From: an uncultured beta proteobacterium
GTDB taxonomy: Bacteria > Pseudomonadota > Gammaproteobacteria > Burkholderiales > Burkholderiaceae
NCBI GenBank assembly: GCA_903875135.1
Contig: CAIQUZ010000037.1
Location: forward strand, 19,606 to 83,605
Length of the DNA: 64,000 bases
Direction: 5' to 3'
A program made the translations under genes and the position numbers. Below, in pieces: positions 28,944-48,541 of this stretch; the first letter of the stretch is position 1, and each line of letters begins with the position of its first letter. The notes below the pieces were generated by a model. The model worked only from the letters and a program-made list of their open reading frames with translations, was not told where the DNA came from and searched no databases.

Positions 28944-29912
28944 ATGTCTCGCTATCTGTCAATAATCGGAATGTGCTTCGCTCTAGTCTTTGCAATATCT
29001 TCGCAAGCGCAAAATACGTCTTACCCAGCTCGCGCTGTCAAATTTATCGTTCCAATCACGCCTGGGGGGAGTAATGATGTCGTAGCCCGAGTAATCGCTC
29101 AAAAATTGAGTGAGCAATGGGGACAACCCGTGACAGTAGATAACCGCCCTGGTGCTGGTATGAATTTAGGTGCGGATATTGTTGCAAAGAGCCCCGCTGA
29201 TGGATATACCTGGCTACTTGGGGCAAATAATATTTTCGTCACCAACCCTCATATGGGAAAAATGCCTTTTGATGTATTCAAAGACTTTACGCCAATCAGT
29301 CAAGTCGCTTTAGTACCTTTCGTTTTAGTTGTTCATCCTTCAGTCCCAGCCAAAACCGTTACTGAATTAGTAGCTTATGCAAAGGCGAACCCAGATAAAC
29401 TCAATTTTGGTTCATCTGGAAATGGATCCCCTCAGCAACTCGCAACAGAAATGTTAAATCACGCTGCAGGTATTCAAATGCAGCATGTTCCCTATAAGGG
29501 TGCTTTGCCAGTTATTACTGATTTAATCGGCGGTCGACTTCAAGTCTTTATTGGAGCCGTGAATTCTCTACTTCCTCATATTAAAGATGGTAAGCTGCGT
29601 TTAATTGCCAGCGCTGGTGGGAAACGGATCTCATCTTTTCCAGATTTACCAACTATTGCCGAAACAATCCCTGGTGTAGAGTTAGATGTTTGGCTTGGTG
29701 TATTCATGCCAGCTGGAGTACCGAAAGATATCATCAATAAAGTGAATGGTGATATCGTTCGAGTTCTTCAACTGCCCGAGGTGAAATCAAACTTGAATGG
29801 GCAAGGTATTGAAGCAGCGCCAAGCACTCCAGAGGCACTCACCAATACCATCAAAGAGGACTATGCCCGCTGGGGTAAAGTCATTAAAGAAGCCAACATT
29901 AAAGCAGAATAA
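28944..29912 (+). CDS. Bug/TctC substrate-binding protein
   Basis: YPARAVKFIVPITPGGSND, DNRPGAG, SPADGYT, HVPYKG. Confidence 0.93.
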   Translation: MSRYLSIIGMCFALVFAISSQAQNTSYPARAVKFIVPITPGGSNDVVARVIAQKLSEQWGQPVTVDNRPGAGMNLGADIVAKSPADGYTWLLGANNIFVTNPHMGKMPFDVFKDFTPISQVALVPFVLVVHPSVPAKTVTELVAYAKANPDKLNFGSSGNGSPQQLATEMLNHAAGIQMQHVPYKGALPVITDLIGGRLQVFIGAVNSLLPHIKDGKLRLIASAGGKRISSFPDLPTIAETIPGVELDVWLGVFMPAGVPKDIINKVNGDIVRVLQLPEVKSNLNGQGIEAAPSTPEALTNTIKEDYARWGKVIKEANIKAE

Positions 29913-29914
29913 AG

Positions 29915-31693
29915 ATGATTAATCACGATACCCCAACTCCAAACACTCAGCCCTCAACTTATTGGGGTAGCGACTCTATTGCGGATTGCCTGCATGAAAT
30001 GCAGGTACCCTATATCGCCCTCAATCCTGGTGCAAGTTATCGGGGTTTACATGATAGCCTCGTGAACCACTTAGGTAACCAAGCTCCGCAAATGCTATTG
30101 TGCTTACACGAAGAAGTGGCTATCGCCATTGCTCAAGGATTTGCCAAAGCCTCAGGCAAGATGATGGGAGCTTTGGTGCACTCAAACGTTGGTTTGATGC
30201 ATGCAACGATGGCTGTCTTCAATGCTTGGTGTGATCGGATGCCAATCTTAATGTTAGGTGCTACCGGTCCTTGGGATGCTGCACGTCGTCGTCCCTGGAT
30301 AGATTGGATTCATACTTCTAGCGATCAAGGTGCTTTAGTGAGAGACTTCACCAAGTGGGATAACCAGCCAGGTTCAATACCTGCAGCTATAGAAGCACTT
30401 CTGCGAGGGAGTCAAATAGCACAAACCGCGCCTCGTGGTCCGGTATATATCAATCTTGATGCAGCATTGCAAGAAAGCAAAATGGAAGGTTTAATGGCCA
30501 TCCCAGATGCAACTCGCTTTGCAGCGCCAAAATCCTCACCACCCTCTACAAATGATGTTGAGCGAGCAGCTCAATTACTTTCTCATGCAAAAAATCCCGT
30601 TATCTTGATGGGACGAATGTCTCGTAATTTATCGGATTGGGATACGCGAGTACAGTTATCTGAAAAACTTCAAGCCGCGGTAATTACCGACCTTAAAAAT
30701 GCAGCCAGTTTTCCGACAGACCACCCACAACATGTCGGATCACCATCTTACTTTATGTCTGCAGAAGCTTGTGCAGCAGTTCGTGAAGCGGATGTGATTT
30801 TAATGTTGGACTGGGTCGATCCAGGAGGTGCTTTTAAACAGGCTCTTCAAAATAAACCATGCCAAGCTCAAATTATTAATGTCTCTTTGGACATGCATAG
30901 TCATCGTGGATGGAGTATGGATGGTGGTAGTTTGCCTGCGGTTGATATCTACATGCTTTGCGAACCTGATGATGCCATTGGTGCTTTAAATAAAGTGATC
31001 TCAGCTCAATCTCAAAAATCTTGGCCCGTTAAAAATACTCTTCCGATAATGCCCGATGATGATGTTGTTAGCCTTCGCGCACTGTCTGATGTGCTTCAAG
31101 AATGTACTAAAGATCTCGATATTTGTTTAGCTCGACTTCCTCTAGGTTGGAATGGTGCTTATCGGCATTTTCGACATCCAATGGATTATCTAGGCGCAGA
31201 TGGCGGCGGAGGTGTTGGTGCTGGCCCAGGAAATACGGTAGGTGTAGCTCTTGCATTAAGAGATATTCAATCTACCCGAGTTCCAGTAGCACTTCTTGGA
31301 GATGGCGATTTTTTAATGAGCAATACTGCCATATGGACAGCAGTCCACTACGGAATACCCTTATTAATCATTGTCTGTAATAACCATTCATACTTTAATG
31401 ATGAGCTCCATCAAGAACGTGTCGCAAAAGAGCGTCTGCGTCCCACAGAAAATAAATGGATTGGTCAACGTATGAGTGAACCTGAAATTGACATTGCACA
31501 AATGACACGCTCTATGGGAGCCGAAGGTATCGGTCCAGTTCGTCGAGCTCAAGATCTTCAAGCCGCAATAACAGAAGGATTACGACTCGTACAAATGGGA
31601 AAAGTCTGCGTCATTGATGCTTGCGTTGCCCCAGGATACGATGCCAATATGAGTGGAAACGCCAGCAACAACTCAGCAGTCCATAAACGTTAA
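29915..31693 (+). CDS. ThDP-dependent enzyme (benzoylformate decarboxylase / ALS-like family)
   Basis: LNPGASYRGLHDS, CLHEEVA, GDGDFLM...NNHSY ThDP motif. Confidence 0.9.
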   Translation: MINHDTPTPNTQPSTYWGSDSIADCLHEMQVPYIALNPGASYRGLHDSLVNHLGNQAPQMLLCLHEEVAIAIAQGFAKASGKMMGALVHSNVGLMHATMAVFNAWCDRMPILMLGATGPWDAARRRPWIDWIHTSSDQGALVRDFTKWDNQPGSIPAAIEALLRGSQIAQTAPRGPVYINLDAALQESKMEGLMAIPDATRFAAPKSSPPSTNDVERAAQLLSHAKNPVILMGRMSRNLSDWDTRVQLSEKLQAAVITDLKNAASFPTDHPQHVGSPSYFMSAEACAAVREADVILMLDWVDPGGAFKQALQNKPCQAQIINVSLDMHSHRGWSMDGGSLPAVDIYMLCEPDDAIGALNKVISAQSQKSWPVKNTLPIMPDDDVVSLRALSDVLQECTKDLDICLARLPLGWNGAYRHFRHPMDYLGADGGGGVGAGPGNTVGVALALRDIQSTRVPVALLGDGDFLMSNTAIWTAVHYGIPLLIIVCNNHSYFNDELHQERVAKERLRPTENKWIGQRMSEPEIDIAQMTRSMGAEGIGPVRRAQDLQAAITEGLRLVQMGKVCVIDACVAPGYDANMSGNASNNSAVHKR

Positions 31694-31719
31694 TTTTTTC
31701 TATAATTGAGTAACTCCAC

Positions 31720-33183
31720 ATGTCAGATACCAATAACTACTTACAACTTCTTCCTAAACATCGTGACCTTTATTATGGAGGATCTTGGCATCAACCGATG
31801 GGTGGTTATCTAGAAACCATGAACCCAGCGACTGGCGAATCTTTAGGCTTATGCGCTGAAGCAAATGCACAAGATGTAGATGCAGCAGTTCAAGCTGCAC
31901 ACGCAGGTTTTTCTGTATGGAAAAAATTCAAACCCCTAGAACGTGCTGCTCTATTAAAAAAGGTGGCGGTAGTACTTCGTGAAAATGCTTTTGAACTAGC
32001 TATGATCGACGCAGCTAATTGTGGTAACCCGATTAGTGAAATGCAACGAGATGCACTCATCGCTGCAGCTCAAATCGATTTTTATGCTGGCTTAGCCACA
32101 GAAATCAAAGGCGAAACCTTACCAATGGGAGATGATATTCTGAATTATTCGGTACGGGAGCCTTATGGTGTTTGTGCACGTATTGTTGCGTATAACCACC
32201 CGATTATGTTTACAGCCGCAAAAATGGCGCCGCCATTAATTGCGGGCAATACAGTCATTATGAAGCCTCCTTATCAGGCTCCTTTATCAAGCTATCGTAT
32301 GATGGAACTGATTGACGGAATTCTCCCACCAGGTGTTCTTAACATCATTAGCTCAGGTGCTATAGGCGGACAAGCACTCGTCACTCATCCATTAGTCCCG
32401 CGTTTATCGCTGATTGGTAGCGTTCCTACTGGACGCGCTATAGCAAAAGCAGCGGCCGATCAGCTCAAACACGTCACTCTTGAATTGGGTGGTAAAAATG
32501 CCTGCATTATTTATCCTGATGCTGATCTCAGTAAAGCAATTACAGGCGCCATTAATGGGATGAACTTTACATGGTGTGGTCAAAGCTGTGGTTCTACATC
32601 ACGCCTATTTGTTCACTCCTCAATCTATAAACAAGTCATAGACGGTCTTCTTCAAGCTGTAAAACATTACAAACCGGGCATACCGACTGATATGGCCACC
32701 ACAATGGGGTCTATAGTTTCTAAAGCCCAATGGGGGAAAATTATGAACTATATCGAGATCGCAAAACAAGACGGTGCACAACTCATTTATGGTGGAAATG
32801 TACCAAGCACACCCTCACTAGCAAATGGTTGGTTTATTGAACCCACTATTTTTACTGGGGTTACTCAGAATATGCGAATTGCTAATGAAGAAGTTTTCGG
32901 CCCTATATTGTCTGTCATACAGTGGGATGATGAGGACCAAATGTTCGATCAAGTAAATGCTGTTGAATATGGTTTAACAGCCTCTATTTGGACCACAAAT
33001 CTATCAAAAGCACATCGTGCGGCTAGTCGTGTTCAAGCCGGGTATATCTGGGTTAATCACTCTAGTAGTCATTTTATTGGAGCATCTTTTGGAGGCTACA
33101 AACAATCTGGCATCGGTCGTGAAGAAGGCTTTGATGAATTATTTAGCTACTCACAACACAAAAACGTCCATGTAGTTTTGTAA
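31720..33183 (+). CDS. Aldehyde dehydrogenase, PhdK (2-carboxybenzaldehyde dehydrogenase)-like subfamily
   Basis: LELGGKNA, GMNFTWCGQSCGSTSRLFVH, EEVFGP, FGGYKQSGIGRE. Confidence 0.9.
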   Translation: MSDTNNYLQLLPKHRDLYYGGSWHQPMGGYLETMNPATGESLGLCAEANAQDVDAAVQAAHAGFSVWKKFKPLERAALLKKVAVVLRENAFELAMIDAANCGNPISEMQRDALIAAAQIDFYAGLATEIKGETLPMGDDILNYSVREPYGVCARIVAYNHPIMFTAAKMAPPLIAGNTVIMKPPYQAPLSSYRMMELIDGILPPGVLNIISSGAIGGQALVTHPLVPRLSLIGSVPTGRAIAKAAADQLKHVTLELGGKNACIIYPDADLSKAITGAINGMNFTWCGQSCGSTSRLFVHSSIYKQVIDGLLQAVKHYKPGIPTDMATTMGSIVSKAQWGKIMNYIEIAKQDGAQLIYGGNVPSTPSLANGWFIEPTIFTGVTQNMRIANEEVFGPILSVIQWDDEDQMFDQVNAVEYGLTASIWTTNLSKAHRAASRVQAGYIWVNHSSSHFIGASFGGYKQSGIGREEGFDELFSYSQHKNVHVVL

Positions 33184-33194
33184 TTAATGTTGAG

Positions 33195-34595
33195 TTACTC
33201 ATTAAAAAAAGAAAGTATCCACTCGTTCGTTTTTAGCGGTAAGTGTGGATTCTTTTCTAACTGCTCGCCCAAAGACACAACAGATTTTTGTAGGTTGGGT
33301 GCTAAATCTTTAGATAATAAGGAGATCTTTTCTAAGACTGTATGACGTTCTAATGGTCTTGCAGAACTCCCTAGAGCTGCCTCACAAAACTCAGAAATCT
33401 TGTCTCCATTCTTTAATTCAATGGTAACTTTAGCAGGGCGATCATAAGGCCAAGGACGTACATCTTTCATTTCTTGCATCACCACTTTATTTCTGACATT
33501 GGCAATGAGAGAATTCGACATACTTTCATGTAAAAAATTTTCTGTAGCGCTTGCACCGTTAATAATAGTGGCAGCTACAGCATGAGGGATCGAAAACTTC
33601 GCCGCCAGGGTTGTGACAGGATTGACATTATTAAAGTTCATTCCCATTTTAGAAACTTCTATGAGTACAGAGTGAATCGTATCTCCTCCGCGAAGATTGG
33701 GATGTGCTTTAAAGATGGTTTCTATGGCTTCCATGGATGCATGCGCATGATGACAAGAACCATACAATTTATGATAGCCAGCAGTAATCGTCCATTCTGT
33801 ACCCAAGTCCATACAAAGCTGATCTGGCTTCGAAGTTGCTCCAAAACCCATCTGATAAACATCATATGGGCCAGTGGGTGTTCCGTAAATATTAGCTTGA
33901 GCCATCTCGCAAGCAAAGTGTCCTAACCAAGCGCCAGCTGCAGGCCAAGCATTTCGAATTAAGGCCCCTTGAATCGGATGACTATAAGGCCCAGGTGAAA
34001 CCATTGTGCAAGCACCAGTCAATGCATTCATGAAAAGTGTTTTATCAAATTTCATTAGAGCAGCATATCCAGCAGCCGCACAAACTGTATTAAATACCCC
34101 ATGAGGGTGCAACCTTGGTAAAGTCTCAGGCCAAGACCTTGCAAAGCGCGTTCCAATTTCATAAGCAACAACTACTGCCCTTAACATCTCTTGTACAGAT
34201 ATATCATTCGCTTGAGCAGCAGCTAAAATAAGGGGTTGACTGAGCGCCCCTGGATGGACTGCAGTTCTAGTGTATCCATCATCTAACTCGTTCCAAGTAA
34301 TCGCTAATCCATTAGCAAGCGCCGCATTCATTAAAGAAGTCTTTGGCCCACCCTTACGAAAAACTGTTGCTGTCTCATCACTTTTTTGACCCAATAATTG
34401 GCTGTGATAAGTATTTACTTCAGGTTCATTAGATGCAGATAAGGTAGCAGCAATGTTGTCACCCAAAATCAAAACAGCGTGTTGTATCACCTGATTTGGA
34501 ATATCCTCATAGCGAAGACTCGTTGCCCAATCTGATAACTTTAATAAATTTTCTGCAACACTATTTTTAATATCGAGCTGATTAACTACATTCAT
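33195..34595 (-). CDS. MmgE/PrpD-family protein (not clearly canonical PrpD); start ATG 34595 overlaps the upstream TGA
   Basis: ALANGLAITWNELDDG...VHPG, AVVVAYEIG, YHKLYGSCHHAHA, AKFSIPHAVA. Confidence 0.85.
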   Translation of the reverse strand: MNVVNQLDIKNSVAENLLKLSDWATSLRYEDIPNQVIQHAVLILGDNIAATLSASNEPEVNTYHSQLLGQKSDETATVFRKGGPKTSLMNAALANGLAITWNELDDGYTRTAVHPGALSQPLILAAAQANDISVQEMLRAVVVAYEIGTRFARSWPETLPRLHPHGVFNTVCAAAGYAALMKFDKTLFMNALTGACTMVSPGPYSHPIQGALIRNAWPAAGAWLGHFACEMAQANIYGTPTGPYDVYQMGFGATSKPDQLCMDLGTEWTITAGYHKLYGSCHHAHASMEAIETIFKAHPNLRGGDTIHSVLIEVSKMGMNFNNVNPVTTLAAKFSIPHAVAATIINGASATENFLHESMSNSLIANVRNKVVMQEMKDVRPWPYDRPAKVTIELKNGDKISEFCEAALGSSARPLERHTVLEKISLLSKDLAPNLQKSVVSLGEQLEKNPHLPLKTNEWILSFFNE

Positions 34596-36982
34596 ACTGT
34601 AACTTTTCTGAGTGCATGCCAAATTTTATTCGAGGTAAATGGCATTTCTACACCCTTCACACCAATCGAGCCCAGAGCATCGATCATGGCGCTGGTGATT
34701 GCCGCAGGGGCGCCAATAGTTCCCGATTCGCCACAACCCTTAACCCCTAAAGGGTTGTGTGTACATGGCTGAGATTCATCTGCCTCAGAAATAAAATCTG
34801 GCAATATGTCGGCCCTAGGCATCGCATAATCCATAAAAGAACCCGTCATGATTTGACCAGAGTCCGGCTCATAAACGGCACTTTCAAATAGAGCTTGGCC
34901 AATACCCTGAGCTATTGCGCCATGCACTTGCCCTTCAACAATCATTGGATTAATCACTGTTCCTACATCATCGATGGCTATGTAAGATAACAATTTCGTC
35001 ACACCAGTTTGTGGATCAATTTCTATTTCACAAGCTTGTGCTCCATTGGACCATGTTAAATTAGGTGGATCAAAAAAAGCATTTTCGTGGAGAACCGGCT
35101 CCATTCCAATCGGCAAATTATGAGCATAGGTAGCAGCGCGTGAAACCTGATACCAATCTAATTTTTCTTGCGTTGTTTTGCAAACGAAATGACCTAGGTT
35201 ATCAATAATCTGATGTTCCACATCGGCAACATCACAAGCAAGAAGGTGAGCCGCAAGTAATTTTGATTTATTCAAAATTTTCGTGCAAGACATCGTAATC
35301 GCTCCACCAGCAATCACCATTGATCTTGATCCAAAAGTTCCAGTTCCATATGGAACTCTGCCTGTATCCCCTTCAACTAACTCAATCATAGATAAAGGTA
35401 GCCCTATATGTGAAGCAATGACTTGCGGAAATGTCGTCGCATGTGCTTGACCATGACTGTGCGTACCACACATTAAAAGAATACTTCCATCGGCAGATAC
35501 TCGGATATCGGCCGAATCAAAAAAACCTGCCCGAGCGCCAAACATTCCGGCATATTTAGAAGGTGCGACTCCAGAACTTTCTAGAAAATAACAAATACCA
35601 AAACCGCGTATCATGCCATTTACTTTTGAAAGTGCACGACGTTTTTCAAAACCAGCAAAATCAGAAACAACAAGCGCTCTGTCAAATAGCCGTTGAAAAT
35701 CTCCACTATCGTAAATTGGACCTAACGGTGTAGAGTAAGGCATTTCACTCGATTTGATGAAATTTTTACGACGCAGTTCCATGCGGTCCATACCCGTTTG
35801 CACCGCAGCTTCTTCGATTAATCGCTCTAATACAAAACATGCTTCAGGACGCCCTGCGCCACGATACGCATCCGTTGGAACCGTATTGGTGAACATCGCA
35901 TCAACCTCTGCGAAAACTGCAGGAATCTTATAAGGACCAGATAAAACCGCAGTGTAAACCGTTGTTGGAACTGCCGCCCCAACAGTAGATATGTATGCCC
36001 CAACAGCAGCATAGGTCTTCACTCGAACACCTAAAATATAACCCTTGTCATCAAGAGCCATTTCCGCGGTGGTCATATGATCACGAGCTTGATAGTCACT
36101 AATAAATGCTTCACTTCTCGTTGAAGTCCACTTTACGGTGATCTTTAGTTTCTTACAAGCCCAGGCTAAAAGTGTTTCTTCAGGATATAACTTACCCTTC
36201 GTACCAAAACCACCACCAACATCAGGTGCAATTACACGTATTGAGTTTTCCGGTAGATTTAATTGCTCCGATGTGAGCTTGCGAATATGGTGCGGAACTT
36301 GTGTGGCGGACCAAATTGTGAGCTCATGACCATCATCTCCAAGAGAGGGAGATACCTGTGCAACAACAGCTCTTGGTTCGATGGCAGCACAAACAATCCG
36401 ATGATTTTTAATTTCTACACGAATCTGGTGCGCCGCCTTTGCAAAGGCAGCATCAACAGGCTCTTTAGAGCCACGGTGAAATCTTACACAAAGATTATTT
36501 GGCGCTTGTGAATGAAGCTGTGGGGCAGTTGCAAGTGCTGCTTTCTCAACATTGACTACTGCATCTAATACTTCAAAATCTACTTCTATCAATTCAGTAG
36601 CATCAATAGCTTGATGAACAGTCTTGGCGATGACCATCGCCACTATTTCACCAACGTGACGCACGCGATCCACCGTCATGGAATATCGTGGAGGTTCATT
36701 CATTTGCGTGCCATTTGCCCCAGGAATCATCCATAGTGGCGTCATCTTACCGACACCATCATTAAATAAGTCTTCCCCAGTTAACACAGCAATTACGCCT
36801 AGAGACATTTGCGCCGCAGAAACATCAATGCTCTTAATAAGTGCATGCGCGTGAGGCGATCTTAAAAAAGCACAGTAATATGTGTTTTCAGGAAGAATAT
36901 CGGCGACAAATTGACCACGTCCTTTTAATAGACGATTATCTTCTCTTCTTAAAACCGTTTTACCAATTCCTTGTGGATGCAT
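34592..36982 (-). CDS. Xanthine-dehydrogenase-family molybdopterin large subunit (form II CoxL-like)
   Basis: RREDNRLLKGRGQFVAD, DVGGGFGTKG, AYRGAGRPEA, HSHGQAHAT, GTFGSRS, GQVHGAIAQGIGQ, KGCGESG. Confidence 0.93.
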   Translation of the reverse strand: MHPQGIGKTVLRREDNRLLKGRGQFVADILPENTYYCAFLRSPHAHALIKSIDVSAAQMSLGVIAVLTGEDLFNDGVGKMTPLWMIPGANGTQMNEPPRYSMTVDRVRHVGEIVAMVIAKTVHQAIDATELIEVDFEVLDAVVNVEKAALATAPQLHSQAPNNLCVRFHRGSKEPVDAAFAKAAHQIRVEIKNHRIVCAAIEPRAVVAQVSPSLGDDGHELTIWSATQVPHHIRKLTSEQLNLPENSIRVIAPDVGGGFGTKGKLYPEETLLAWACKKLKITVKWTSTRSEAFISDYQARDHMTTAEMALDDKGYILGVRVKTYAAVGAYISTVGAAVPTTVYTAVLSGPYKIPAVFAEVDAMFTNTVPTDAYRGAGRPEACFVLERLIEEAAVQTGMDRMELRRKNFIKSSEMPYSTPLGPIYDSGDFQRLFDRALVVSDFAGFEKRRALSKVNGMIRGFGICYFLESSGVAPSKYAGMFGARAGFFDSADIRVSADGSILLMCGTHSHGQAHATTFPQVIASHIGLPLSMIELVEGDTGRVPYGTGTFGSRSMVIAGGAITMSCTKILNKSKLLAAHLLACDVADVEHQIIDNLGHFVCKTTQEKLDWYQVSRAATYAHNLPIGMEPVLHENAFFDPPNLTWSNGAQACEIEIDPQTGVTKLLSYIAIDDVGTVINPMIVEGQVHGAIAQGIGQALFESAVYEPDSGQIMTGSFMDYAMPRADILPDFISEADESQPCTHNPLGVKGCGESGTIGAPAAITSAMIDALGSIGVKGVEMPFTSNKIWHALRKVTV

Positions 36983-37108
36983 GTAATTCTCTCAATTAAT
37001 AATGGGACCTAAAAATATGTTAGCTTAATAACCTAAAGATTCAAAATAATGTTATCTTAGTTTTTATTTCCTCACAAGGAATTCCAAAATTTATAAATCG
37101 GAGCTTTT

Positions 37109-38077
37109 ATGAACTTCAAGAAAAACTGTTTAATCTCTTTAATCATATTGTTGCTAGCTAGTTTTTCGTCTTTAAGTATGGCCCAACAAAAAATGAAAAT
37201 GGGGCTTTTTATTGCATCTTCAGCTCTCCCATATTTTATTGCTAAAGAAAGAGGTTACTTTGCTGCAGAGGGTCTTGACGTTGAGGGAATACCCTTAGCA
37301 ACACAACCTTTGGTTGTTCAAGGAATTGTTACTGGTGATTTAGATGCTGGCTCTAACCTGCTCTCACTAGAAGGTGCAAATATCAACGCCTTGAGACCAG
37401 ATACATTGAAGTACATCTCTTTAAATTGTCAAAATGTAAAATATCAACTCGAAGCTTACGTCGTTCCAGTCAATAGCACTATTAAAACCTTAGCTGAGTT
37501 GAAGGGCAAACGCATTATGTCTGCCCCAGGCCCGGGTAACCTTTTTGTGGCAAAAGGCGTGCTTAAAGCAGTTGGTCTTGATGAAAAAGATTATCAGATG
37601 CAAGAACAACAAATGAGCGTTCACATTGGTGGTCTTCAGTCTGGTCAATTTGATGCCGCATATACTCTTGAACCGATCGTGAGCATGATGGTTTCTCAAG
37701 GAGTTGGTCGTAAACTCGAAAGTGGTGTAATTGCAAAATACATGCTTGGCAGACCCGATGCCTGTGCGGTACTTGGTGGTGGCGTTCTCAGTTCTAAATT
37801 TATCAAAGAATATCCACAAGCGGCAGAACGATTTGCTAGAGCATGGGCCAAGGCATTAAATGACGGTAATAACGATCCTAAGGCTCGCGATCTCCTAGTG
37901 AAGTATATGAATACATCAGCAAGCATTGCTCAAACTGTACCGCTATCTCACTACAACATGATCCGTGATTTAAAACCTCAAGATCTTGCTGACTTTCAGA
38001 ACTTAATTGATCAGGCAACAGCTTATGGGTTGGTCAAAGAAAAAATTGATGCTAAATCATTTTTAAAAGTCTATTAA
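37109..38077 (+). CDS. NitT/TauT (NMT1/SsuA-like) ABC substrate-binding protein
   Basis: Signal peptide; LPYFIAKERGYFAAEGLDVE, LAELKGKRI, GQFDAAYTLEP. Confidence 0.88.
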   Translation: MNFKKNCLISLIILLLASFSSLSMAQQKMKMGLFIASSALPYFIAKERGYFAAEGLDVEGIPLATQPLVVQGIVTGDLDAGSNLLSLEGANINALRPDTLKYISLNCQNVKYQLEAYVVPVNSTIKTLAELKGKRIMSAPGPGNLFVAKGVLKAVGLDEKDYQMQEQQMSVHIGGLQSGQFDAAYTLEPIVSMMVSQGVGRKLESGVIAKYMLGRPDACAVLGGGVLSSKFIKEYPQAAERFARAWAKALNDGNNDPKARDLLVKYMNTSASIAQTVPLSHYNMIRDLKPQDLADFQNLIDQATAYGLVKEKIDAKSFLKVY

Positions 38078-38083
38078 TATCCG

Positions 38084-38857
38084 ATGAGTTTGATGCCGTA
38101 TAAAAAATATCTGGAGCCTCTAGTTCCCTTAATTGGGGCTCTAGTTTTTGTCTTAATCTGGTGGCTTAGCACCACGTTAAAATTGGTAGATCCTTTCTTA
38201 TTGCCCTCTCCACTCGCCGCAGGAAAAGCAATGTGGACCGGCATAACCAGTGGGACCTTATCTCTCGATATGATCATCACGATCCGTCGAACGATTTATG
38301 CCTTTTTAATTGCTGTGGTGATCTGCGTTCCACTTGGACTTATTTTAGGTAGTTCTGAGCGTCTCTATCGATCCTGCGAATTTGTGATTGATTTCTTTCG
38401 CTCAACGCCTGCTTCAGCTTTATTCCCCCTCTTTTTAGTCATATTAGGTGTTGGAGAAAATACCAAAATTGCAGTAGCCGCTTTTGGCGCCGGACTTTTG
38501 ATTTTGTTCAATACCGCATACGGAGTCATGAACGCCAGAAAAGTACGGCAAGCTGCAGCAAGGGTCATGGGGGCCTCAAGCCTGAAGATTCTATATGGTG
38601 TAACTCTACTTGAATCACTCCCTCAAACATTTGTAGGAATGCGTTCCGGAATTTCCTTTTCACTAGTGATTGTGATTGTTGCAGAGATGTTTATCGGCTC
38701 TACAGATGGCTTAGGCCAACGTGTGATTAATGCTCAAATGATTTTTAATATGCCGGAAATGTACGCTACGATTTTTAGTGCCGGAGCATTAGGTTACGGA
38801 TTAAATCTTCTCTTCATTCTCGCGGAAAGACACTTCGTCCATTGGGGTGGAAAATAA
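38084..38857 (+). CDS. NitT/TauT ABC permease
   Basis: FLLPSP, DFFRSTPASALFPLF, LESLPQTFVGMR, IVIVAEMF. Confidence 0.9.
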   Translation: MSLMPYKKYLEPLVPLIGALVFVLIWWLSTTLKLVDPFLLPSPLAAGKAMWTGITSGTLSLDMIITIRRTIYAFLIAVVICVPLGLILGSSERLYRSCEFVIDFFRSTPASALFPLFLVILGVGENTKIAVAAFGAGLLILFNTAYGVMNARKVRQAAARVMGASSLKILYGVTLLESLPQTFVGMRSGISFSLVIVIVAEMFIGSTDGLGQRVINAQMIFNMPEMYATIFSAGALGYGLNLLFILAERHFVHWGGK

Positions 38858-38881
38858 ACGTGTATTTCCAAATTTAATTAA

Positions 38882-39649
38882 TTGATTATGACAGCACATA
38901 TCCAAATTCGTGGGTTGAGTAAAACTTTTGCTGGGCAAACGCTATATTCAAATTTTAATCTCGATTTTTCTCATGGGAAAATCACATCGATCTTTGGTCC
39001 GAATGGTTGCGGAAAATCGACGTTGATTAATATGATTTCTGGACTAACCCCAATGGATGCTGGAGAAGTTCTGTTTGATGGTAAAACCCTAGCTCAAACG
39101 GTTATCGGCTACGTCTTTCAAAACTACCGAGACGCTCTTTTCCCATGGAAAAAAGCCATCGACAATATCAAATATCCTCTCCAAATTGCAAAACAGTCTA
39201 TCGGTGAGATTGAAGCTAGAACCCAAGAATTAATTCAGTCGTTTGATGTCCGCTTTGATCTCAACCGATATCCCTACGAATTATCAGGTGGACAGCAACA
39301 ATTAATTTCCATTATGAGAGCTCTAGCTCCAAATCCAGAAGTACTTTTTTTGGATGAGCCATTTTCTGCACTCGATTATGAAATGACCCTGTTTATGCGG
39401 GATAAACTACAGGCGATTTTTGAAGCGACTAAAACCACCATGATTCTTGTCTCTCATGATCTCGATGAAGCAGTGTATTTATCAGACCACATTCTGATGT
39501 TGACTCGAAGGCCTACTCAAATCGCGCGTGAAATTGAATTTAATGCGCCAAGACCCCGTCAACCCCTCACTCTCACATCAGAACTATTTAATCAAGTAAA
39601 AGGTCAATGTCTTGAAATCTTCCAAAAAGAAATCAAAATAATCGATTAG
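38882..39649 (+). CDS. NitT/TauT ABC ATPase
   Basis: GPNGCGKST, VFQNYRDALFPW, YPYELSGGQQQ, LDEPFSALD, VSHDLDEA. Confidence 0.93.
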   Translation: MIMTAHIQIRGLSKTFAGQTLYSNFNLDFSHGKITSIFGPNGCGKSTLINMISGLTPMDAGEVLFDGKTLAQTVIGYVFQNYRDALFPWKKAIDNIKYPLQIAKQSIGEIEARTQELIQSFDVRFDLNRYPYELSGGQQQLISIMRALAPNPEVLFLDEPFSALDYEMTLFMRDKLQAIFEATKTTMILVSHDLDEAVYLSDHILMLTRRPTQIAREIEFNAPRPRQPLTLTSELFNQVKGQCLEIFQKEIKIID

Positions 39650-39682
39650 AATTAATTCATATTTTAAAAAAGGAGATGATCT

Positions 39683-40159
39683 ATGAGCATCCAAGTATCG
39701 ATGATCATTAATGGCCAATCTGTTCAACATGAAGTGGAAGAGCGAACACTCTTGGTAAATTTTATCCGCGATTATTGTCGCTTAACAGGCACTCATGTTG
39801 GCTGCGATACAGCACAATGCGGTGCGTGCACAATCCATTTAAATGGTCGAGCCATCAAAAGTTGCAGCATTCTAGCGATGCAAGCAGAAGGTGCAACTAT
39901 TACAACAATTGAAGGAGTTTCATCGGATGATCAATTACATCCAATGCAAGAAGCCTTTAAAACACATCATGGGCTACAGTGTGGCTATTGCACTCCCGGA
40001 ATGATTATGAGTGCGATTGACCTTGTCAATCAATTTCCTAATCCCAGTAAGGAACTCATCCGGGAACAACTCGATGGCAACTTATGCCGTTGCACTGGTT
40101 ATCACAATATCGTAATTGCCATTCAAGAGGCGGCCAAAGTTATGAGCCCTTCTAACTAA
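39683..40159 (+). CDS. Molybdenum hydroxylase small subunit (2x[2Fe-2S], CoxS-like)
   Basis: [15 protein letters not shown]...[19 protein letters not shown]. Confidence 0.94.
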
Positions 40160-40176
40160 ATTTCTCGGAGCGATTT

Positions 40177-40971
40177 ATGTATCCATTTTCATTTCATCAC
40201 ACTCAAAAAATTACTGACACTGTCTCTTTAAAAAAAGAATCTCCAGAGGGAAAATATATCGCTGGTGGTCAAAGTTTAATTGGGGTAATGAAGCTAAGAC
40301 TTGATAAACCGTCCGAATTAATTAACCTAGGATCCATTCCTGAACTTACCGGCATTTGTGTAGATGGGAAGACCTTAACAATCGGAGCAATGGCGAGACA
40401 TGCCGAAGTTGCCGCATCTGCTGATGTGAAAAATTGCATCCCTGGTCTATCCCAACTCGCGGGCCTCATTGCCGATAGAATGGTGCGCAATATGGGGACA
40501 ATCGGCGGCTCTGTCGCTAACAATGATCCTTCTGCGGATTATCCTGCTGGCTTGTTGGGATTAAATGCCACCATCATTACCAATCAACGTGAAATCAAAG
40601 CGGATGATTTTTTTCTCGGGATGTTTGAAACCGCTCTAGAGCCAAGTGAATTGATCCAATCGATTCGTTTTACAGCACCGATTCAATCTGCCTATGCTAA
40701 ATTCAAACACCCCGCCTCTAGATACGCCGTCGTCGGTGTTTTTGTCGCTCAATTTCCGGGCGAAGTCAGAGTGGCTGTCACAGGAGCCGGCGCATCAGTT
40801 TTCCGACTCACAGAAGTTGAAAAAGCTCTTTCTAACAACTTCTCTGCCAGTGCATTAGATCCAATACATATTTCTGCTGATGGGCTTAACTCAGACTTTT
40901 TTGCAGATTCAGAATACCGAGCCCATTTAATCAAATTAATGGCAATACAAGCAGTTAACCAAGCACAATAA
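40177..40971 (+). CDS. Molybdenum hydroxylase medium subunit (FAD, CoxM-like)
   Basis: [48 protein letters not shown]. Confidence 0.93.
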
Positions 40972-40988: not shown

Positions 40989-42083
40989 ATGTCAATTGAT
41001 GTCGTTAAAGTTGAAATTAAAAGTGTATCGGATGCCTCAGGGCTATTACAACATATAGAATCTGGAAGATTTAAGGCTGATGACGTCATCGCTATTATTG
41101 GAAAAACTGAGGGTAATGGTGGAGTAAATGATTTCACAAGAATCTTATCAGATCATGCTTTTCGAGACGTTTTATTGAAACACGGCACGCGGACTACAGA
41201 GCAGATTCGGGAAATCCCGATGGTTTGGTCAGGTGGTTGTGATGGCGTCATCACACCACATGCCACTATTTTTACTCAAGTTAACGATACTTCAAGTTCA
41301 AAAGAAAGTCGTCTAGTAATTGGTACAGCACTTAGCCCGCGTATTTATCCAGAAGATATTGGTCGTTTGTCAATGGTAGAAAAAGTGCGTCAAGGTGTGC
41401 TGTTAGCAATGAAAAATGCAGGGATTGATGATCCAAAAGATGTGCATTACGTGCAGACAAAAACACCACTGCTGACCATTGAATCTGTCCTTGATGCCAA
41501 ATCACGTGGAAAGACTCTAGCCTGCGAAGTTCACGACTCCATGGGTGTTTCCAATGGCACTACGGCCCTAGGAATTGCGGTTGCACTAGGCGAAATCTCA
41601 ATGCCAACAGAAGAAGATATCTGCGAGAATCACGCCTTGTTTTCTTCAGTAGCATCCTGCTCTTCTGGCGTTGAATTAGATTTCGCACAAATTGTTTTAC
41701 TCGGCAATAAAACTGGCGCAGGAGGAAAATTTAGGATCGGTCACGGCATTATGAGAGATGCTATTGATATCGATGGTATCTATGATGCGATTCGGTCCGC
41801 TGGCTTAACCTTACCTGAGCGCCCCAGAGCAAGCGACTTAAACGGCAAACTAGTTAACTGCTTCATTAAATGTGAGGCGGATCAAACTGGTAAGCTTCGT
41901 GGTCGTCGACAAATTATGTTAGATGACTCCGATGTGCATCATCATCGACACTCTAAAGCTGCCGTTGGTGGAGTAGCTGCTGCCGCGATTGGTGATCCCG
42001 CTGTCTTCGTATCTGTTGATGCTATGCACCAAGGTCCGCACGGTGGCGGTCCCGTTATCGCGATTGTTGATTTGGGGACTTAA
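40989..42083 (+). CDS. bar: Ring-opening amidohydrolase of the AtzD/barbiturase (Toblerone-fold) family, barbiturase-like
   Basis: [40 protein letters not shown] (Asn189 where cyanuric acid hydrolases have Arg), [36 protein letters not shown]; collinear end to end with Rhodococcus barbiturase as I recall it. Confidence 0.88.
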
Positions 42084-42092
42084 ACAGTTTTC

Positions 42093-42572
42093 TTATTGAT
42101 AGATTTTCTGATCAAAGAAACTCATACCTGCAATATAGCGGCTACCATCAGACATGTCCGGGAGTGGTCCCTTCTCGATTTTTCCTTCAAAGGTTAATTC
42201 GAGTTGGACACCGCTTGGATCATAAATAAATAGTTGCCAAATCGTCGTGTTCGGCACTAAAAATTCACGAAAAGGTAATTTCATGTCAATAAATTTTTGA
42301 CGGTACTCATGGTAACCCGAGCAAGAAAATGAGATATGATCAATCGCTGCAGTCCCTAATACTGTCTTACCATCTTCACCAAGCGCTGGTCCACCAGCGT
42401 AACAATGTAATATCGCTTGCCCACCAGGAATCGGAGCAGCAAGCCACGCTCCCGGAAAACCAAAGTCCGGACGATAAATATCAATCAAACCTAATACCTT
42501 AGTATAAAAATCTTTAGTTGCCTCTAAATTATTCGTTTTAACTGCAATATGAAACAAACCATTCGTAATCAT
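42093..42572 (-). CDS. VOC / glyoxalase-family metalloprotein
   Basis: FHIAV...FYTKVLGL, GAWL, LHCY, IDHISF, YDPSGVQLEL (His/His/His/Glu metal set). Confidence 0.88.
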   Translation of the reverse strand: MITNGLFHIAVKTNNLEATKDFYTKVLGLIDIYRPDFGFPGAWLAAPIPGGQAILHCYAGGPALGEDGKTVLGTAAIDHISFSCSGYHEYRQKFIDMKLPFREFLVPNTTIWQLFIYDPSGVQLELTFEGKIEKGPLPDMSDGSRYIAGMSFFDQKIYQ

Positions 42573-42585
42573 GAACTATTCCTGT

Positions 42586-42969
42586 TTAAATTTTATCGAT
42601 CAAACTAACATGGGCTGAAACAATTCTCCAACCTTCAGGTGTCCTTACCCAAGTTTGCGATTGACGCCCCAATTTTCCTGGAACAGTATCTCTTTCAAAT
42701 AAGGTATTCGCTGTTGCCAAGTCATTTCCAAAAGTAGTAATTACTGTTTTACTGATACTTCTTAATAAACCTTTCGACGGTCTTGCGGCTCGAAAAGCTG
42801 CTATTTCGTCAAAACCATATAAGTTTTCATTCATGCCATAACGGATAACTAATGGATTATTCCAAAATGAGTTATCTAAAACATCAATCTTATTGTGAAT
42901 CAAGGCGTCCTCATATTGATCAAAAAGAGCTTGAACTTCTGCGTGGATATTAGGGATGTTAATTTGCAT
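42586..42969 (-). CDS. AtzH/HpxZ-like (DUF3225, NTF2-like) protein
   Basis: FDQYEDALIHN...FW...IRYG..ENLYGFDEIAAFRAAR...GRQSQTWVR.PEGWRIVSAHVS. Confidence 0.9.
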   Translation of the reverse strand: MQINIPNIHAEVQALFDQYEDALIHNKIDVLDNSFWNNPLVIRYGMNENLYGFDEIAAFRAARPSKGLLRSISKTVITTFGNDLATANTLFERDTVPGKLGRQSQTWVRTPEGWRIVSAHVSLIDKI

Positions 42970-44259: not shown

Positions 44260-45135
44260 TTATTTAAATAACTCATCAAGGTGTTTCTCGTAATCGTAAT
44301 AATTGATACTTTCGTATAACTCATTTCTCGTTTGCATTTGCCCAATCAAATTTTTTTGTGTTCCCTCAGACCGAATGGTTTGATAAACATGCTCTGCTGC
44401 TTTATTCATCGCTCTAAAAGCTGATAATGGGTAAAGTGCCATGCTGACTCCAACTGACCTCAATTCATCGATAGTGAACAATGGCGTTGATCCAAACTCA
44501 GTAATATTGGCTAAAACTGGAACTTTGGTCTTTTCGACAAATTGTTGATATTGACCTAGTTCAGTAACTGCTTCTGGAAACAACATATCTGCACCCGCCT
44601 CAACATAAGCAAGCACTCTATCTATGCAAGCATTGATACCTTCTGCTGCTAAAGAGTCGGTTCTTGCCATCACCACAAAATCCTCACTCGACTTAGCATC
44701 AATAGCTGCTTTGATACGATCGACCATTTCTGCACAACTCACAATTTGTTTATTGGGTCGATGACCACAACGTTTAGCACCAACTTGATCTTCAATATGA
44801 ATCGCTGCCACCCCAGCTTTTTCTAATGAACGAACCGTCCTAGCCACATTAAATGCCGATGACCCAAATCCTGTATCCACATCAACTAGCAAAGGTAAAG
44901 TACAAATATCGGTGATTCTTCTGGCATCAATCAGCACATCTTCTAAGTTAGAAATTCCAAGATCAGGCAAGCCTAAAGATCCCGCAGACACTCCCCCGCC
45001 AGATAAATAAATAGCTTTGTAACCAGCTCGCTGAGCCAGTAACGCATGGTTACCATTCACTGCACCAATGACTTGAAGTGGTGATTCATTCAAAATTGCT
45101 TGACGAAACAAACTACCCGGAGATACTCGACTCAT
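44260..45135 (-). CDS. prpB: 2-methylisocitrate lyase
   Basis: [54 protein letters not shown]. Confidence 0.92.
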
Positions 45136-45162
45136 ATTTACACCTTATTTTTGCCTGATCAA

Positions 45163-46125
45163 TTAATCATCTTTCATATTCGACTTTTTGATAATTGGAG
45201 CAAGCCTTCCTTTTTCTTCAGCCAAAAATTTCACAAAATCTGTAATCGACCCTGGGATTGGTTCGATACCTTGAGGTACTAATCGATTCGTTACCGCTTC
45301 CGTTTTAAGACCAGCATTAATTGCTTGATTCATTTTCTCTAAAACATCGTCTGGTGTTCCCTTTGGGGCATATAAACCTGCCCAGTGACCAATAAAAACC
45401 TCTGGATAACCTAATTCTTTTGCTGTTGGGACATTTGGTAGCGCAGAAATTCTTTTGTTCCAAGTCGATGCAATGGCTTTTAGTTTACCGCCCTGAATTT
45501 GTGGAATCACAACCGGACTTGCCTCAGAAGTAGCATCAACTTGACTAGAAATTACGGCAAGCATCCCTTCAGATCCACTCTTATAGGGAATTACTTCATA
45601 TTTACCACCAGTATTTAATTTCAGCATTTCTACCACAAAATGCGGTGTGCTGCCTGTTCCTGCGGTTGAGAAGTTAAGCCCCTTTGACTCTTTTGACAAA
45701 GCCACTAAATCTTTTAACTGATTCATTTTAGAGTTGGCTGCCACCACAATGATGGAAGGGCTAACTGCCAAAAATCCTACTGGAACTAAGTCCCCTTCTT
45801 TATAAGGCATCGAGGATTTGATGAGTGCATTAGTAAGAGTTCCACTTGCCCCAACAAAAAAGGTATATCCATCATTGGCACTTTTAGCAACATAATCAGC
45901 ACCCAAAACAGATCCAGCACCTGGCTTGTTCTCTACAATAATTGTTTGACCTAATTGTTTGGAGGCGGCTTCAGCAGCAACTCTTGCCACTAAATCATTC
46001 GCTCCGCCAGGACCAAAACCAACTACAAATTTAATCGTATGATTTGGCCAAGGCTCAGCGGCAATTACGCCACACATCATCATGGCACTTAAAAGCAGGC
46101 AGGATAAAGATCGTCTTATTTTCAT
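45163..46125 (-). CDS. Bug/TctC substrate-binding protein (likely start ATG 46125)
   Basis: MKIRRSLSCLLL signal; WPNHTIKFVVGFGPGGAND, VENKPGAG, IPYKSG. Confidence 0.92.
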   Translation of the reverse strand: MKIRRSLSCLLLSAMMMCGVIAAEPWPNHTIKFVVGFGPGGANDLVARVAAEAASKQLGQTIIVENKPGAGSVLGADYVAKSANDGYTFFVGASGTLTNALIKSSMPYKEGDLVPVGFLAVSPSIIVVAANSKMNQLKDLVALSKESKGLNFSTAGTGSTPHFVVEMLKLNTGGKYEVIPYKSGSEGMLAVISSQVDATSEASPVVIPQIQGGKLKAIASTWNKRISALPNVPTAKELGYPEVFIGHWAGLYAPKGTPDDVLEKMNQAINAGLKTEAVTNRLVPQGIEPIPGSITDFVKFLAEEKGRLAPIIKKSNMKDD

Positions 46126-46219
46126 AGTTTTCTTTCTGTGGACATTCTGTATCAAATTGTAGTCGTGAATCAGAGTCATTCGCCATTACTTACCATATTA
46201 AATGAATCTTCCTTCATAA

Positions 46220-48541
46220 CTACGCCTTGACTGGACCAAACTGTGGGGGAGGAACTCGTCTTTTAGAAGCTGCTTCATAAGCAGAAGCCACTCTGATTAA
46301 ACGGTCTTCCATTCCCGGCTCCACCCGAAATACCAAAGAAAATGGTAAGCCAGCACCTTCTAATTTTGTCGGGGTTTGGCTCGTTTTTCCGAGATATTTT
46401 TTTCGATCTTCAGATAACTCAAAAACTGCATCGTAGGCTATATCAACAAATCCCGCAGGCACTAAAACTTCCGTAAGTCCAGCATTGGGTCCGTACAGTA
46501 ATTCGTTACGAAGGTCAGTAATTTCACCAGGCTCATCAGGCCATCCAATCTTCGCAGGTGGCAAAGGCGTATGGAGCCTTACCAAAACATCAAGTTTGTT
46601 TTCAAGAATCACCATCATATCGACTCTTCGCAGTAGCTCTCTGAGCATAATGCGCTCATTAATCCCTTGTCTGCCACCTAAAGGATTCCTGGGATCCGTC
46701 GTCTCTTCCCAATTTTTAAAAGCTGATCGCTGATCATCACCCCAAAATTTGGAGCGTTGATTTAATGTCGGCCAATCGATGAGCGACTCTTTAAATCCAA
46801 GAACATTCCAATCCTGCGCTCGGCGACTCAAATATTGCTTGATGTGATAGCGAAAAGAGTTGGCTAATATTTGATGTTGAACTGTAGCAATCGTTAAATT
46901 TTGGGGTGGCTGGATATTGAGATCAGCCAACTCCACACAATAATCAATCGCCGTCATTTTTCCGGAGCCAAAGATTTTTCCTGGGGCAAATTCAGTCGGC
47001 ATAATTTGCTCAGCAAACTCAGGAAATACCGGCTGCCTGGCTTCATTTAATCGAAATAAAATATCTGGCATAAAGACTGGGACTAACCTTGCTAGGGCTT
47101 TCGTAAAATCAATTCCCATTTGTTCTATTGTGTTATCTCTTTGCCAAAGAGTATGCGATGACTCCACTAAAGTCGCACCAAGATGATTACCAAGTATCTC
47201 TTTAATCTCTAGGCTTGCCTTAGTAATGATCGGTTCTACTGATTTAATTCCGGGGTTTATCATGGATTCACGGATCACCCCAATACGGGTTCCTTTTAAA
47301 AGGCCCACGGTATTCCCTTTAATCACATGATCGAGATAGCGTGTTTGTAAGACAGAGGATCGCGGGACAGTTGTGTAGGGGTCTCTAGGATCGTAATACC
47401 CATTGTCATCATCTTTAAGCGCATCCAAAATACGTGTGCAGTCTTCCAAAGTGCGACTTAAGATTCCCGTTCGATCACAATAGATATCCGCACCAATAGC
47501 CCCACCATCAAAACCTAGCATTGCCTTATGGGGCAAAATCAATGCTAATGCATTATGGTTGGCAGGACCTCTTGTCGACATCCGTGTTTCTTCACCTAAA
47601 CTAGCCATCACCAAATTAGCACTAACCGATACGCCTGATCCCGAACTAGAACCTAAGGATGCTGAGCGCGTTGTGTCATAGGGATTCGATGGATTACCAC
47701 CCCAAGTAGAGCGTTGATAACCATGTACGGATGGCAAGATCTGGTGAGGTTGGTTTTTACCTCCTGGATCACCTGCACGACCGTTATATTCTGTCATGAC
47801 CGCTTTGGCGAAAATAATCGCCCCTTTTTGACGAAGCTGGTCGACTAAAAGATGATCTCTGGCCGGAAAGTCGATATCGTAAGCAGCATCACCACCTCCC
47901 GTAGAACGCATGTCTTTCGTATCAAAAGCATCTTTGAAGGAAAATGTCACGCCATATAAAGGTAACTTTTCAAGATCGGGTTGTTGGCCATACTGCGCAT
48001 CTAAAGCCGCTGCTTGCTCAAGAGCGTCCGGATATTGCCGAAATAATTCACACATCGGAGGAGCACCTTTAGGCAAGGGCCCTTTTGAAGGATGCAAATC
48101 ATAATCACCACGACAAGTAACTGATCGTTCTCCACGTAGATTAATCGTTGATAAAGCATTGAGTTGACCAGCATTGGGTTTGCCTACAATCATTCCGAAC
48201 TGTTGGTAAATACTAGGGTCTGAGGCGGTTGACTCCATTCTGCCAAACTCAATGTCTGGACCAATATATCGATCTAAGTTTGGCAATAACTTAGAAGCAT
48301 TTAAGGTCTCTTGATCAAACCGTATCGGCTGACCACCACGTAAAACACCTGTGTGAGCAGGAATTTGGCTACCATCCCTTGTCACCAGCAAGCTTGAGGG
48401 TCCATTAAACTGCCGTATACGAGCCAGATATTGCTGAACTACTGCCACACAACTGGTTCTCCCCTCTTGAATTGCAAGATGCAGATCTGAAATTGTTGCT
48501 TCTTCAACTTGAAAGGGAATATTAGACTGACTTTGCGACAC
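46220..48541 (-). CDS. Amidase-signature family protein, unusually long (773 aa)
   Basis: VEEATISDL, PLYGVTFSFKD (catalytic Lys), NPYD, GSSSGSG (cis-Ser), GEETRMSTRGPA (nucleophile Ser), C-terminal EDRLIRVASAYE.ASKRRVPP. Confidence 0.88.
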   Translation of the reverse strand: MSQSQSNIPFQVEEATISDLHLAIQEGRTSCVAVVQQYLARIRQFNGPSSLLVTRDGSQIPAHTGVLRGGQPIRFDQETLNASKLLPNLDRYIGPDIEFGRMESTASDPSIYQQFGMIVGKPNAGQLNALSTINLRGERSVTCRGDYDLHPSKGPLPKGAPPMCELFRQYPDALEQAAALDAQYGQQPDLEKLPLYGVTFSFKDAFDTKDMRSTGGGDAAYDIDFPARDHLLVDQLRQKGAIIFAKAVMTEYNGRAGDPGGKNQPHQILPSVHGYQRSTWGGNPSNPYDTTRSASLGSSSGSGVSVSANLVMASLGEETRMSTRGPANHNALALILPHKAMLGFDGGAIGADIYCDRTGILSRTLEDCTRILDALKDDDNGYYDPRDPYTTVPRSSVLQTRYLDHVIKGNTVGLLKGTRIGVIRESMINPGIKSVEPIITKASLEIKEILGNHLGATLVESSHTLWQRDNTIEQMGIDFTKALARLVPVFMPDILFRLNEARQPVFPEFAEQIMPTEFAPGKIFGSGKMTAIDYCVELADLNIQPPQNLTIATVQHQILANSFRYHIKQYLSRRAQDWNVLGFKESLIDWPTLNQRSKFWGDDQRSAFKNWEETTDPRNPLGGRQGINERIMLRELLRRVDMMVILENKLDVLVRLHTPLPPAKIGWPDEPGEITDLRNELLYGPNAGLTEVLVPAGFVDIAYDAVFELSEDRKKYLGKTSQTPTKLEGAGLPFSLVFRVEPGMEDRLIRVASAYEAASKRRVPPPQFGPVKA

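Follow-up and report, generated by a model that had tools for sequence, protein, structure and literature searches.

Gene content and organization of the locus

The window analyzed here, a stretch of 64,000 nucleotides (nt) from contig CAIQUZ010000037.1 (assembly GCA_903875135.1, positions 19,606 to 83,605), comes from a freshwater Polynucleobacter-like bacterium whose assembly spans 2.7 Mb and is 92.8% complete. It contains genes for a candidate three-subunit molybdenum hydroxylase (subunits L, S and M), together with an ATP-binding cassette (ABC) importer and a barbiturase-type gene (Bar). The molybdopterin-binding large subunit L (796 amino acids, aa) is encoded on the minus strand at 34592-36982 and was recognized from Pfam and NCBIfam matches, motifs and trees. 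On the plus strand, an NMT1/SsuA-type periplasmic substrate-binding protein (SBP, 37109-38077), a permease (38084-38857) and an ATPase (38882-39649), all assigned from Pfam and NCBIfam, are followed by the small subunit S (39683-40159, 158 aa), the FAD-binding medium subunit M (40177-40971, 264 aa) and Bar (40989-42083), an AtzD/Bar-family ring-opening amidohydrolase and the predicted consumer of the hydroxylase product. The gaps between these six genes are 6, 24, 33, 17 and 17 nt, and Shine-Dalgarno-like sequences are found ahead of S, M and Bar. A first-pass annotation had described L opposite an S-M pair (39683-40971) lying behind an ABC transporter, with 126 nt between the two transcription units, and all of these elements were recovered, the gap being an AT-rich divergent control region at 36983-37108.

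The translational coupling of L to an MmgE/PrpD gene, claimed in the same annotation, is also borne out, as the TGA stop of L (34594-34592) overlaps the in-frame ATG at 34595 of an MmgE/PrpD-family gene (33195-34595, minus strand) in the sequence ATGA. Pfam and NCBIfam place this gene in the family, but its relation to true PrpD is distant, and we refer to it as PrpD-like. Its open reading frame is listed with a TTG start at 34622, nine codons upstream and in the same frame, but 34595 is the likely start because the identical 4-nt overlap is kept in the ortholog locus L090.

Scans of the locus for promoters and terminators returned matches at chance level only, so the two transcription units are deduced here from spacing and orientation alone. 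The intergenic regions of the window and of the ortholog loci do not align, and no conserved element or shared operator was seen among them; the palindrome TGTCCGGACAA, present in L091 and L015 and considered as a shared operator, does not occur in the window. Two 11-nt arms (AATTCCTTGTG / CACAAGGAATT) at 36965-36975 and 37073-37083 form a perfect inverted repeat; the first falls within codons 3-6 of L, and the second lies 26 nt ahead of the SBP start. Since the repeat is not shared with the ortholog loci, its meaning is doubtful.

The large subunit and its partner subunits

L carries TDAYRGAGRPEAC, containing DAYRGAGRPEA, and with it the AYRGAGR loop reported in the first-pass annotation. Also present are the active-site Gln228 (ATQ), the GGGFG motif (G256-G260) and the catalytic Glu E752 in GCGESG. 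As expected of a xanthine dehydrogenase-type molybdenum hydroxylase, L has an a/b-hammerhead and two molybdenum cofactor-binding domains (Ald_Xan_dh_C, MoCoBD_1 and MoCoBD_2; PF01315, PF02738 and PF20256), and the other two subunits complete the three-subunit set, with eight Cys in S forming two [2Fe-2S] motifs, and FAD_binding_5 (PF00941) with AGGQSL and TIGG in M. By similarity, both S and M are of the coxSLM type. The AYRGAGR loop is the motif of form II CoxL proteins, and a loop of this type also occurs in a paralog on contig C89 of the same genome and in an L protein of Embleya. According to a recent survey (PMC13240472), AYRGAGR is found in other molybdenum hydroxylases as well, and the activity of form II enzymes is unresolved.

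The earlier assignment of L to form II CoxL holds for the motif and fails for the placement. Two L trees (FastTree of 174 sequences; IQ-TREE with LG+C20 PMSF of 41 sequences) had the same structure; all sampled L loci had been retrieved with the pattern PTDAYRGAG, so the motif is no evidence within the sampled set. The window L groups with those of L090, L091 and L001 (support 100) inside a clade of "orphan L" genes (SH-aLRT 100), which we define as L genes without S or M within 1.5 kb. This clade is sister to a monophyletic clade (support 95) of L proteins encoded in S-L-M order, which is the classical organization of form II genes and occurs in Rhodobacteraceae and Ralstonia, and the window L lies outside the latter clade. 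Forcing its subclade to group with the betaproteobacterial S-L-M proteins cost 257.6 log-likelihood units (lnL) and was rejected by the approximately unbiased (AU) test (p-AU 6e-73). The gene order coxS-coxL-coxM is not found either, as L is on the minus strand and S-M on the plus strand, 2.7 kb off behind the importer. Form II CoxSLM enzymes (for example, Ralstonia solanacearum megaplasmid CJO93_20720-20730 and the Roseobacter-group coxSLM) share AYRGAGR and the three-subunit cofactor set with the window, at identities of 45-50% for L, 55-76% for S and 45-60% for M, but in the window the order is different, no coxD/E/G genes follow and L falls in a separate clade. By phylogeny and gene order, L should not be counted as a canonical form II CoxL.

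In a search of 5.8 billion proteins, homologues of L ran unbroken from 100 to 56% identity, with about 100 metagenomic homologues at 56-95%. A sister clade of stand-alone L proteins (50-56% identity) has, in 14 loci (L003, L004, L006, L007, L009, L010, L012, L016, L032 and L092-L096), a bicupin gene directly ahead of L and in the same orientation; it encodes a two-cupin, gentisate-dioxygenase-like protein, and neither S nor M lies within 10 kb of those L genes. From this gene context, the bicupin-linked L would constitute a separate hydroxylase-plus-dioxygenase module, probably with another substrate.

The host genome holds ten three-subunit molybdenum hydroxylase sets and several two-subunit ones (contigs C34, C37, C56, C79, C89, C109 and C113), along with a single XdhC-type chaperone gene (C109:263647-263856). 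The window L is the only L in the assembly without adjacent S and M, and S-M at 39683-40971 is the only such pair without an adjacent L. Because all nine other sets have contiguous L, S and M, leaving these pieces unpaired, the view that they are partners, which the first-pass annotation had taken, is well supported by elimination. The second hydroxylase in the window (8797-12475) has an L, M and S of its own, encoded in that order by overlapping genes, and the nearest L paralog in the host genome is 35% identical to the window L. The L gene of an M-S-L set appears to be split by a contig break (C89:42751-44799 / C64:1-366); the C64 piece, comprising the C-terminal 124 aa of the split protein, is 50% identical to the window L.

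The barbiturase-type gene and its linkage to the hydroxylase

The product of the gene 17 nt after M matches the Rhodococcus barbiturase (PDB 5HWE) with an E value of 3e-148 and about 65% identity, and matches cyanuric acid hydrolases at 1e-88 or weaker. Five positions separate Bar (Asn194/His324/Lys328/Val348/Ser-or-Ala349) from AtzD (Arg/Thr/Arg/Gly/Gly) (Peat et al. 2013, PMC3758960). In the window protein, N189, H319, K323 and V343 match the Bar signature, and the fifth residue is Asp344. All fetched proteobacterial copies of the Bar type read NHKVD, while actinobacterial copies have NHKV followed by S, A or G, and Burkholderiaceae homologues at 40-44% identity have R-x-R-G-G. Judged by these residues, the gene is of the barbiturase type with one deviating position. 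It also scores 443 against the NCBIfam cyanuric acid amidohydrolase equivalog NF052395 (cut-off 360), which is probably a source of misannotation, and pipelines will probably misname Bar.

The dehydrogenation of uracil and thymine has been known as an activity since the 1950s and is defined as EC 1.17.99.4, the conversion of uracil or thymine to barbiturate or 5-methylbarbiturate with an acceptor. We found no gene or sequence assigned to EC 1.17.99.4 in the searchable literature. The oxidative pyrimidine pathway of Rhodococcus erythropolis JCM 3132 consists of this dehydrogenase, barbiturase and ureidomalonase (Soong et al. 2001, 2002, as cited in PMC3758960). In the window, a Bar-type gene lies directly after the hydroxylase subunits, and the predicted chemistry corresponds to the first two steps of that pathway; in contrast to it, the window unit has no amidase, and the fifth signature residue of its Bar is Asp.

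Linkage between Bar and the hydroxylase is seen at three levels. In the window, S, M and Bar are separated by gaps of 17 nt. In L015 (HyuA-HyuB-Bar | L | SBP-permease-ATPase-FdrA/AllG), an L ortholog lies beside Bar in a different arrangement. Among genomes, 5 of the 15 others that carry a member of the orphan-L clade have a Bar-type gene, against none, the window's own aside, in 400 Burkholderiaceae and 400 Burkholderiales genomes sampled (0/800; Fisher p 1e-9). In four genomes with both Bar and orphan L, Bar sits with a paralogous NMT1-type importer whose ATPase and permease are 57-65% and whose SBP is 40-46% identical to those of the window. One of these loci, L199 (G796:C30), reads HyuA-HyuB-Bar-ATPase-permease-FdrA-AllG(DUF1116)-SBP-amidase, and L200, L201 and L245 share its core of Bar and an NMT1-type importer; all four are proteobacterial Bar loci without any molybdenum hydroxylase. 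FdrA/AllG beside Bar is a hint that the product of ring opening undergoes carbamoyl transfer.

In Actinomycetota, Bar was found in 16 of 401 sampled genomes, a tally that takes in one unpublished genome (G1067), from which no locus was used. Of 17 actinobacterial Bar loci, 5 have a hydroxylase encoded in contiguous M-S-L order at a distance of 5-9 kb from Bar. The example in Embleya sp. NBC_00888 (L171) resembles the window in being a three-subunit enzyme of the xanthine dehydrogenase family with a YRGAGR-type loop and a linked Bar-type gene, but its genes are contiguous in the order M-S-L and its L falls outside the window's clade. As a different molybdenum hydroxylase is involved, Bar has been combined with members of this family on more than one occasion. 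The best match of the actinobacterial Bar-linked L in the host genome is the paralog on C34 (40-43%), which we rejected as a rival uracil dehydrogenase since its context (MFS-ECH-CoxG-M-S-L-TctC) has no pyrimidine genes.

Predicted function, alternatives and origin of the subunits

The reading that we prefer, and to which we would give an even chance, is that L, S and M form one molybdenum hydroxylase of the xanthine dehydrogenase family, probably an (LMS)2 complex, that acts as a uracil/thymine-type C6 hydroxylase and feeds the barbiturase. The enzyme would be expressed from the two divergent units through their common 126-nt control region. The NMT1-type importer would bring in a pyrimidine, most likely uracil and/or thymine, and the Mo-molybdopterin centre of L would hydroxylate C6, the carbon adjoining a ring nitrogen, with oxygen from water. 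Electrons would pass to the two [2Fe-2S] clusters of S, then to the FAD of M and on to a further acceptor, and the resulting barbiturate or 5-methylbarbiturate would be opened by the barbiturase, the predicted flux thus running from import to ring opening. Quinoline 2-oxidoreductase (1T3Q) and 6-hydroxypseudooxynicotine dehydrogenase (7DQX), which lie on the same CoxL branch and match L over its full length (E 2e-126 and 5e-119), hydroxylate a carbon adjoining a ring nitrogen; their substrates and gene contexts differ from those of the window, and L is no more similar to them than to true carbon monoxide (CO) dehydrogenases (8UEM, 1e-152).

In favour of this reading are the short gaps that join S-M-Bar to the importer, the Bar-type signature, the intact cofactor and catalytic motifs of L, S and M, the pairing by elimination, the arrangement in L015, the co-occurrence of Bar with the orphan-L clade, the related importers beside Bar in four further proteobacterial loci, and the actinobacterial Bar loci with a molybdenum hydroxylase. 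Several observations weigh against it. Orthologs of L at 68-76% identity were found in at least five loci (L001, L002, L015, L090 and L091); no L ortholog at 60% identity or more was found in plasmid records. All five extend upstream of L and keep the divergent importer (68-79% identity, a range that includes the SBP), and the PrpD-like gene follows L in four of six loci (the window, L002, L090 and L091). S and M are absent in the three loci whose sequence can be read beyond the ATPase gene. L001 and L091 have L and the importer with no S, M or Bar nearby, the importer being followed by an oppositely oriented hydrolase in L001 and by an unrelated YHYH gene in L091; in L090 and L002, the contig ends too close to judge S, M and Bar. 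A search for Bar in the metagenome-assembled genomes (MAGs) of L001 and L002 found none. Because S, M and Bar are missing near these orthologs and Bar was not found in the two MAGs, the conserved core is L with the importer, and in part the PrpD-like gene, and not L with Bar. The first-pass annotation had interpreted the transporter as inserted into a split operon, and this is not supported, as the divergent L and importer are the conserved core and a dedicated M exists only at 76-100% identity. In L090, genes for TctC, a member of the isocitrate/isopropylmalate dehydrogenase family and an acyl-CoA synthetase come after L and the PrpD-like gene, and a uracil route does not account for any of these or for the PrpD-like gene. 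Two actinobacterial Bar-linked L proteins, taken as stand-ins for the Rhodococcus dehydrogenase, are 70% identical to each other and only 35-36% identical to the window L, and the two kinds are not orthologous. The Asp at the fifth Bar position may point to a ring substrate other than plain barbiturate. The genomes behind the co-occurrence result are incomplete, related MAGs, and the Fisher p overstates the case. A search of solved structures with the SBP found no informative relative and gave no substrate clue; the same search with the PrpD-like protein gave no substrate clue either.

Some of these observations would be accommodated if the enzyme and its pairing were as proposed and the substrate were another N-heterocycle, such as a 5-substituted or carboxylated uracil, 4,6-dihydroxypyrimidine or an aza-analogue, with the PrpD-like protein handling a side group or a later acid. 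We consider this clearly less probable than uracil or thymine and still worth serious attention. The Asp shared by all proteobacterial Bar copies fits such a substrate, and so do the overlap of the PrpD-like gene with L and its retention behind L, the 13 residues specific to the window L subclade, several of which are aromatic-to-smaller changes, and the distance between the L-linked SBP and the Bar-linked SBPs. However, no natural source of barbiturate other than the oxidation of uracil or thymine is known (PMC3758960), and the unit has no deaminase, known-type decarboxylase or other side-group enzyme. A more radical departure, which we regard as unlikely, ties L to a carboxylate route through the PrpD-like protein and TctC, or makes it an aldehyde oxidoreductase, so that its nearness to S-M-Bar is accidental and S and M are loosely linked or remnants of a coxSLM operon. 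Most orthologs are indeed L-PrpD-like(-TctC) without Bar or S and M nearby, the NCBIfam models that L, S and M match best, though none reaches its cut-off, describe the subunits of archaeal glyceraldehyde dehydrogenase, and S and M are far closer to coxSLM-type subunits than the divergence of L predicts. Yet S and M need an L, and no other unpaired L is present in the 92.8%-complete assembly; moreover, S-M is tightly packed between importer and Bar, L015 independently puts an L ortholog beside Bar, and Bar is enriched among genomes carrying the orphan-L clade.

That the locus encodes a CO dehydrogenase is highly improbable. The closest solved structures to L are CoxL proteins, and automatic pipelines name its homologues "carbon-monoxide dehydrogenase large subunit," but the AYRGAGR loop of L lacks the Cu-binding Cys of the form I loop AYRCSFR, L scores far below both NCBIfam cut-offs for CO dehydrogenase (575 vs 950 for NF040766; 546 vs 991 for TIGR02416), the unit has no coxD/E/F/G genes, and the activity of form II enzymes is itself in question (PMC13240472). 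Together with the barbiturase-type gene after M, the missing Cys and the low scores agree with the earlier suggestion that the context points to a pyrimidine-type substrate instead of CO. If the uracil/thymine reading is right, one branch of the "form II CoxL-like" proteins, a large group that public pipelines label as CO dehydrogenase and that environmental surveys must exclude, would gain a concrete substrate, and the locus would be a compact proteobacterial candidate for the uracil/thymine dehydrogenase gene. Because the Bar-linked hydroxylases of Actinobacteria and Betaproteobacteria are not orthologous, the comparison also suggests that the first pathway step was recruited independently in the two groups. 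The present analysis contributes the clade of L genes that stand alone, the recruitment, as is probable, of S and M of the coxSLM type, and the enrichment of Bar at the genome level.

Regarding S and M, the window differs from betaproteobacterial S-L-M operons in an uneven manner, with identities of 72-76% for S and 57-60% for M but only 47-48% for L. Among 253 pairs of true S-L-M operons, those with 44-50% identity in L have mean identities of 60% in S and 37% in M, and the window S and M lie +3.7 to +4.8 standard deviations off the trend of the identity regression. A concatenated S+M maximum-likelihood tree nests the window in the betaproteobacterial S-L-M group (support 97), and the AU test did not reject a position outside that group (delta lnL 6.05, p 0.129). 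In the 5.8-billion-protein search, the closest homologues of M, at 76-100% identity, make up a compact group of 12 clusters that all have 264 aa, below which identity drops directly to 63% or less. The mosaic origin that we propose is therefore based on the regression and on this gap in the M identity distribution, the incongruence of the S+M tree being unproven. Pfam did not detect PF03450 (CO_deh_flav_C) in M or in its 76-100% relatives, while most coxSLM-type M proteins at 63% or less have it; the missing match could stem from divergence that followed a switch to another L partner. Because of the M identity gap, the regression and the ortholog loci without S and M, the data indicate that only the shallow lineage of the window has a dedicated S-M pair, and most likely this pair was recruited from a coxSLM-type operon.

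The L lineage, in turn, probably stands alone beside its importer as a rule and borrows S and M from a coxSLM operon, and in the lineage of the window a coxSLM-type S-M would have been placed in cis together with Bar. We tentatively extend this to a scenario that is possible though on balance improbable, in which the window L comes from a "plug-in" lineage without S and M of its own that draws on a form II coxSLM enzyme already present in the cell for its Fe-S and FAD subunits, so that one electron-transfer module would serve several L proteins, both pyrimidine-type and bicupin-linked; in the present host, which lacks a coxSLM operon, a coxSLM-type S-M would then have been captured into the importer-barbiturase operon. 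Genes for coxSLM-type M were found in 12 of 15 orphan-L genomes and in 96 of 400 genomes of the order sample (a related tally of 97/401 takes in one unpublished genome, G601, from which no locus was used). This excess is compatible with S and M acting in trans, although lifestyle and ancestry are confounding factors. Along with the apparently borrowed S and M, it raises the question of subunit sharing among molybdenum hydroxylases.

Convergent with Bar, on the minus strand, are a VOC/glyoxalase-fold gene (42093-42572) and an AtzH-like gene (42586-42969), each of which could encode a downstream step. Further out, the locus is flanked by a unit of TctC, a thiamine pyrophosphate enzyme and an aldehyde dehydrogenase (28944-33183) and by another of a PrpB-like gene, TctC and a 773-aa amidase (44260-48541), and both units may serve later steps or unrelated acid catabolism.

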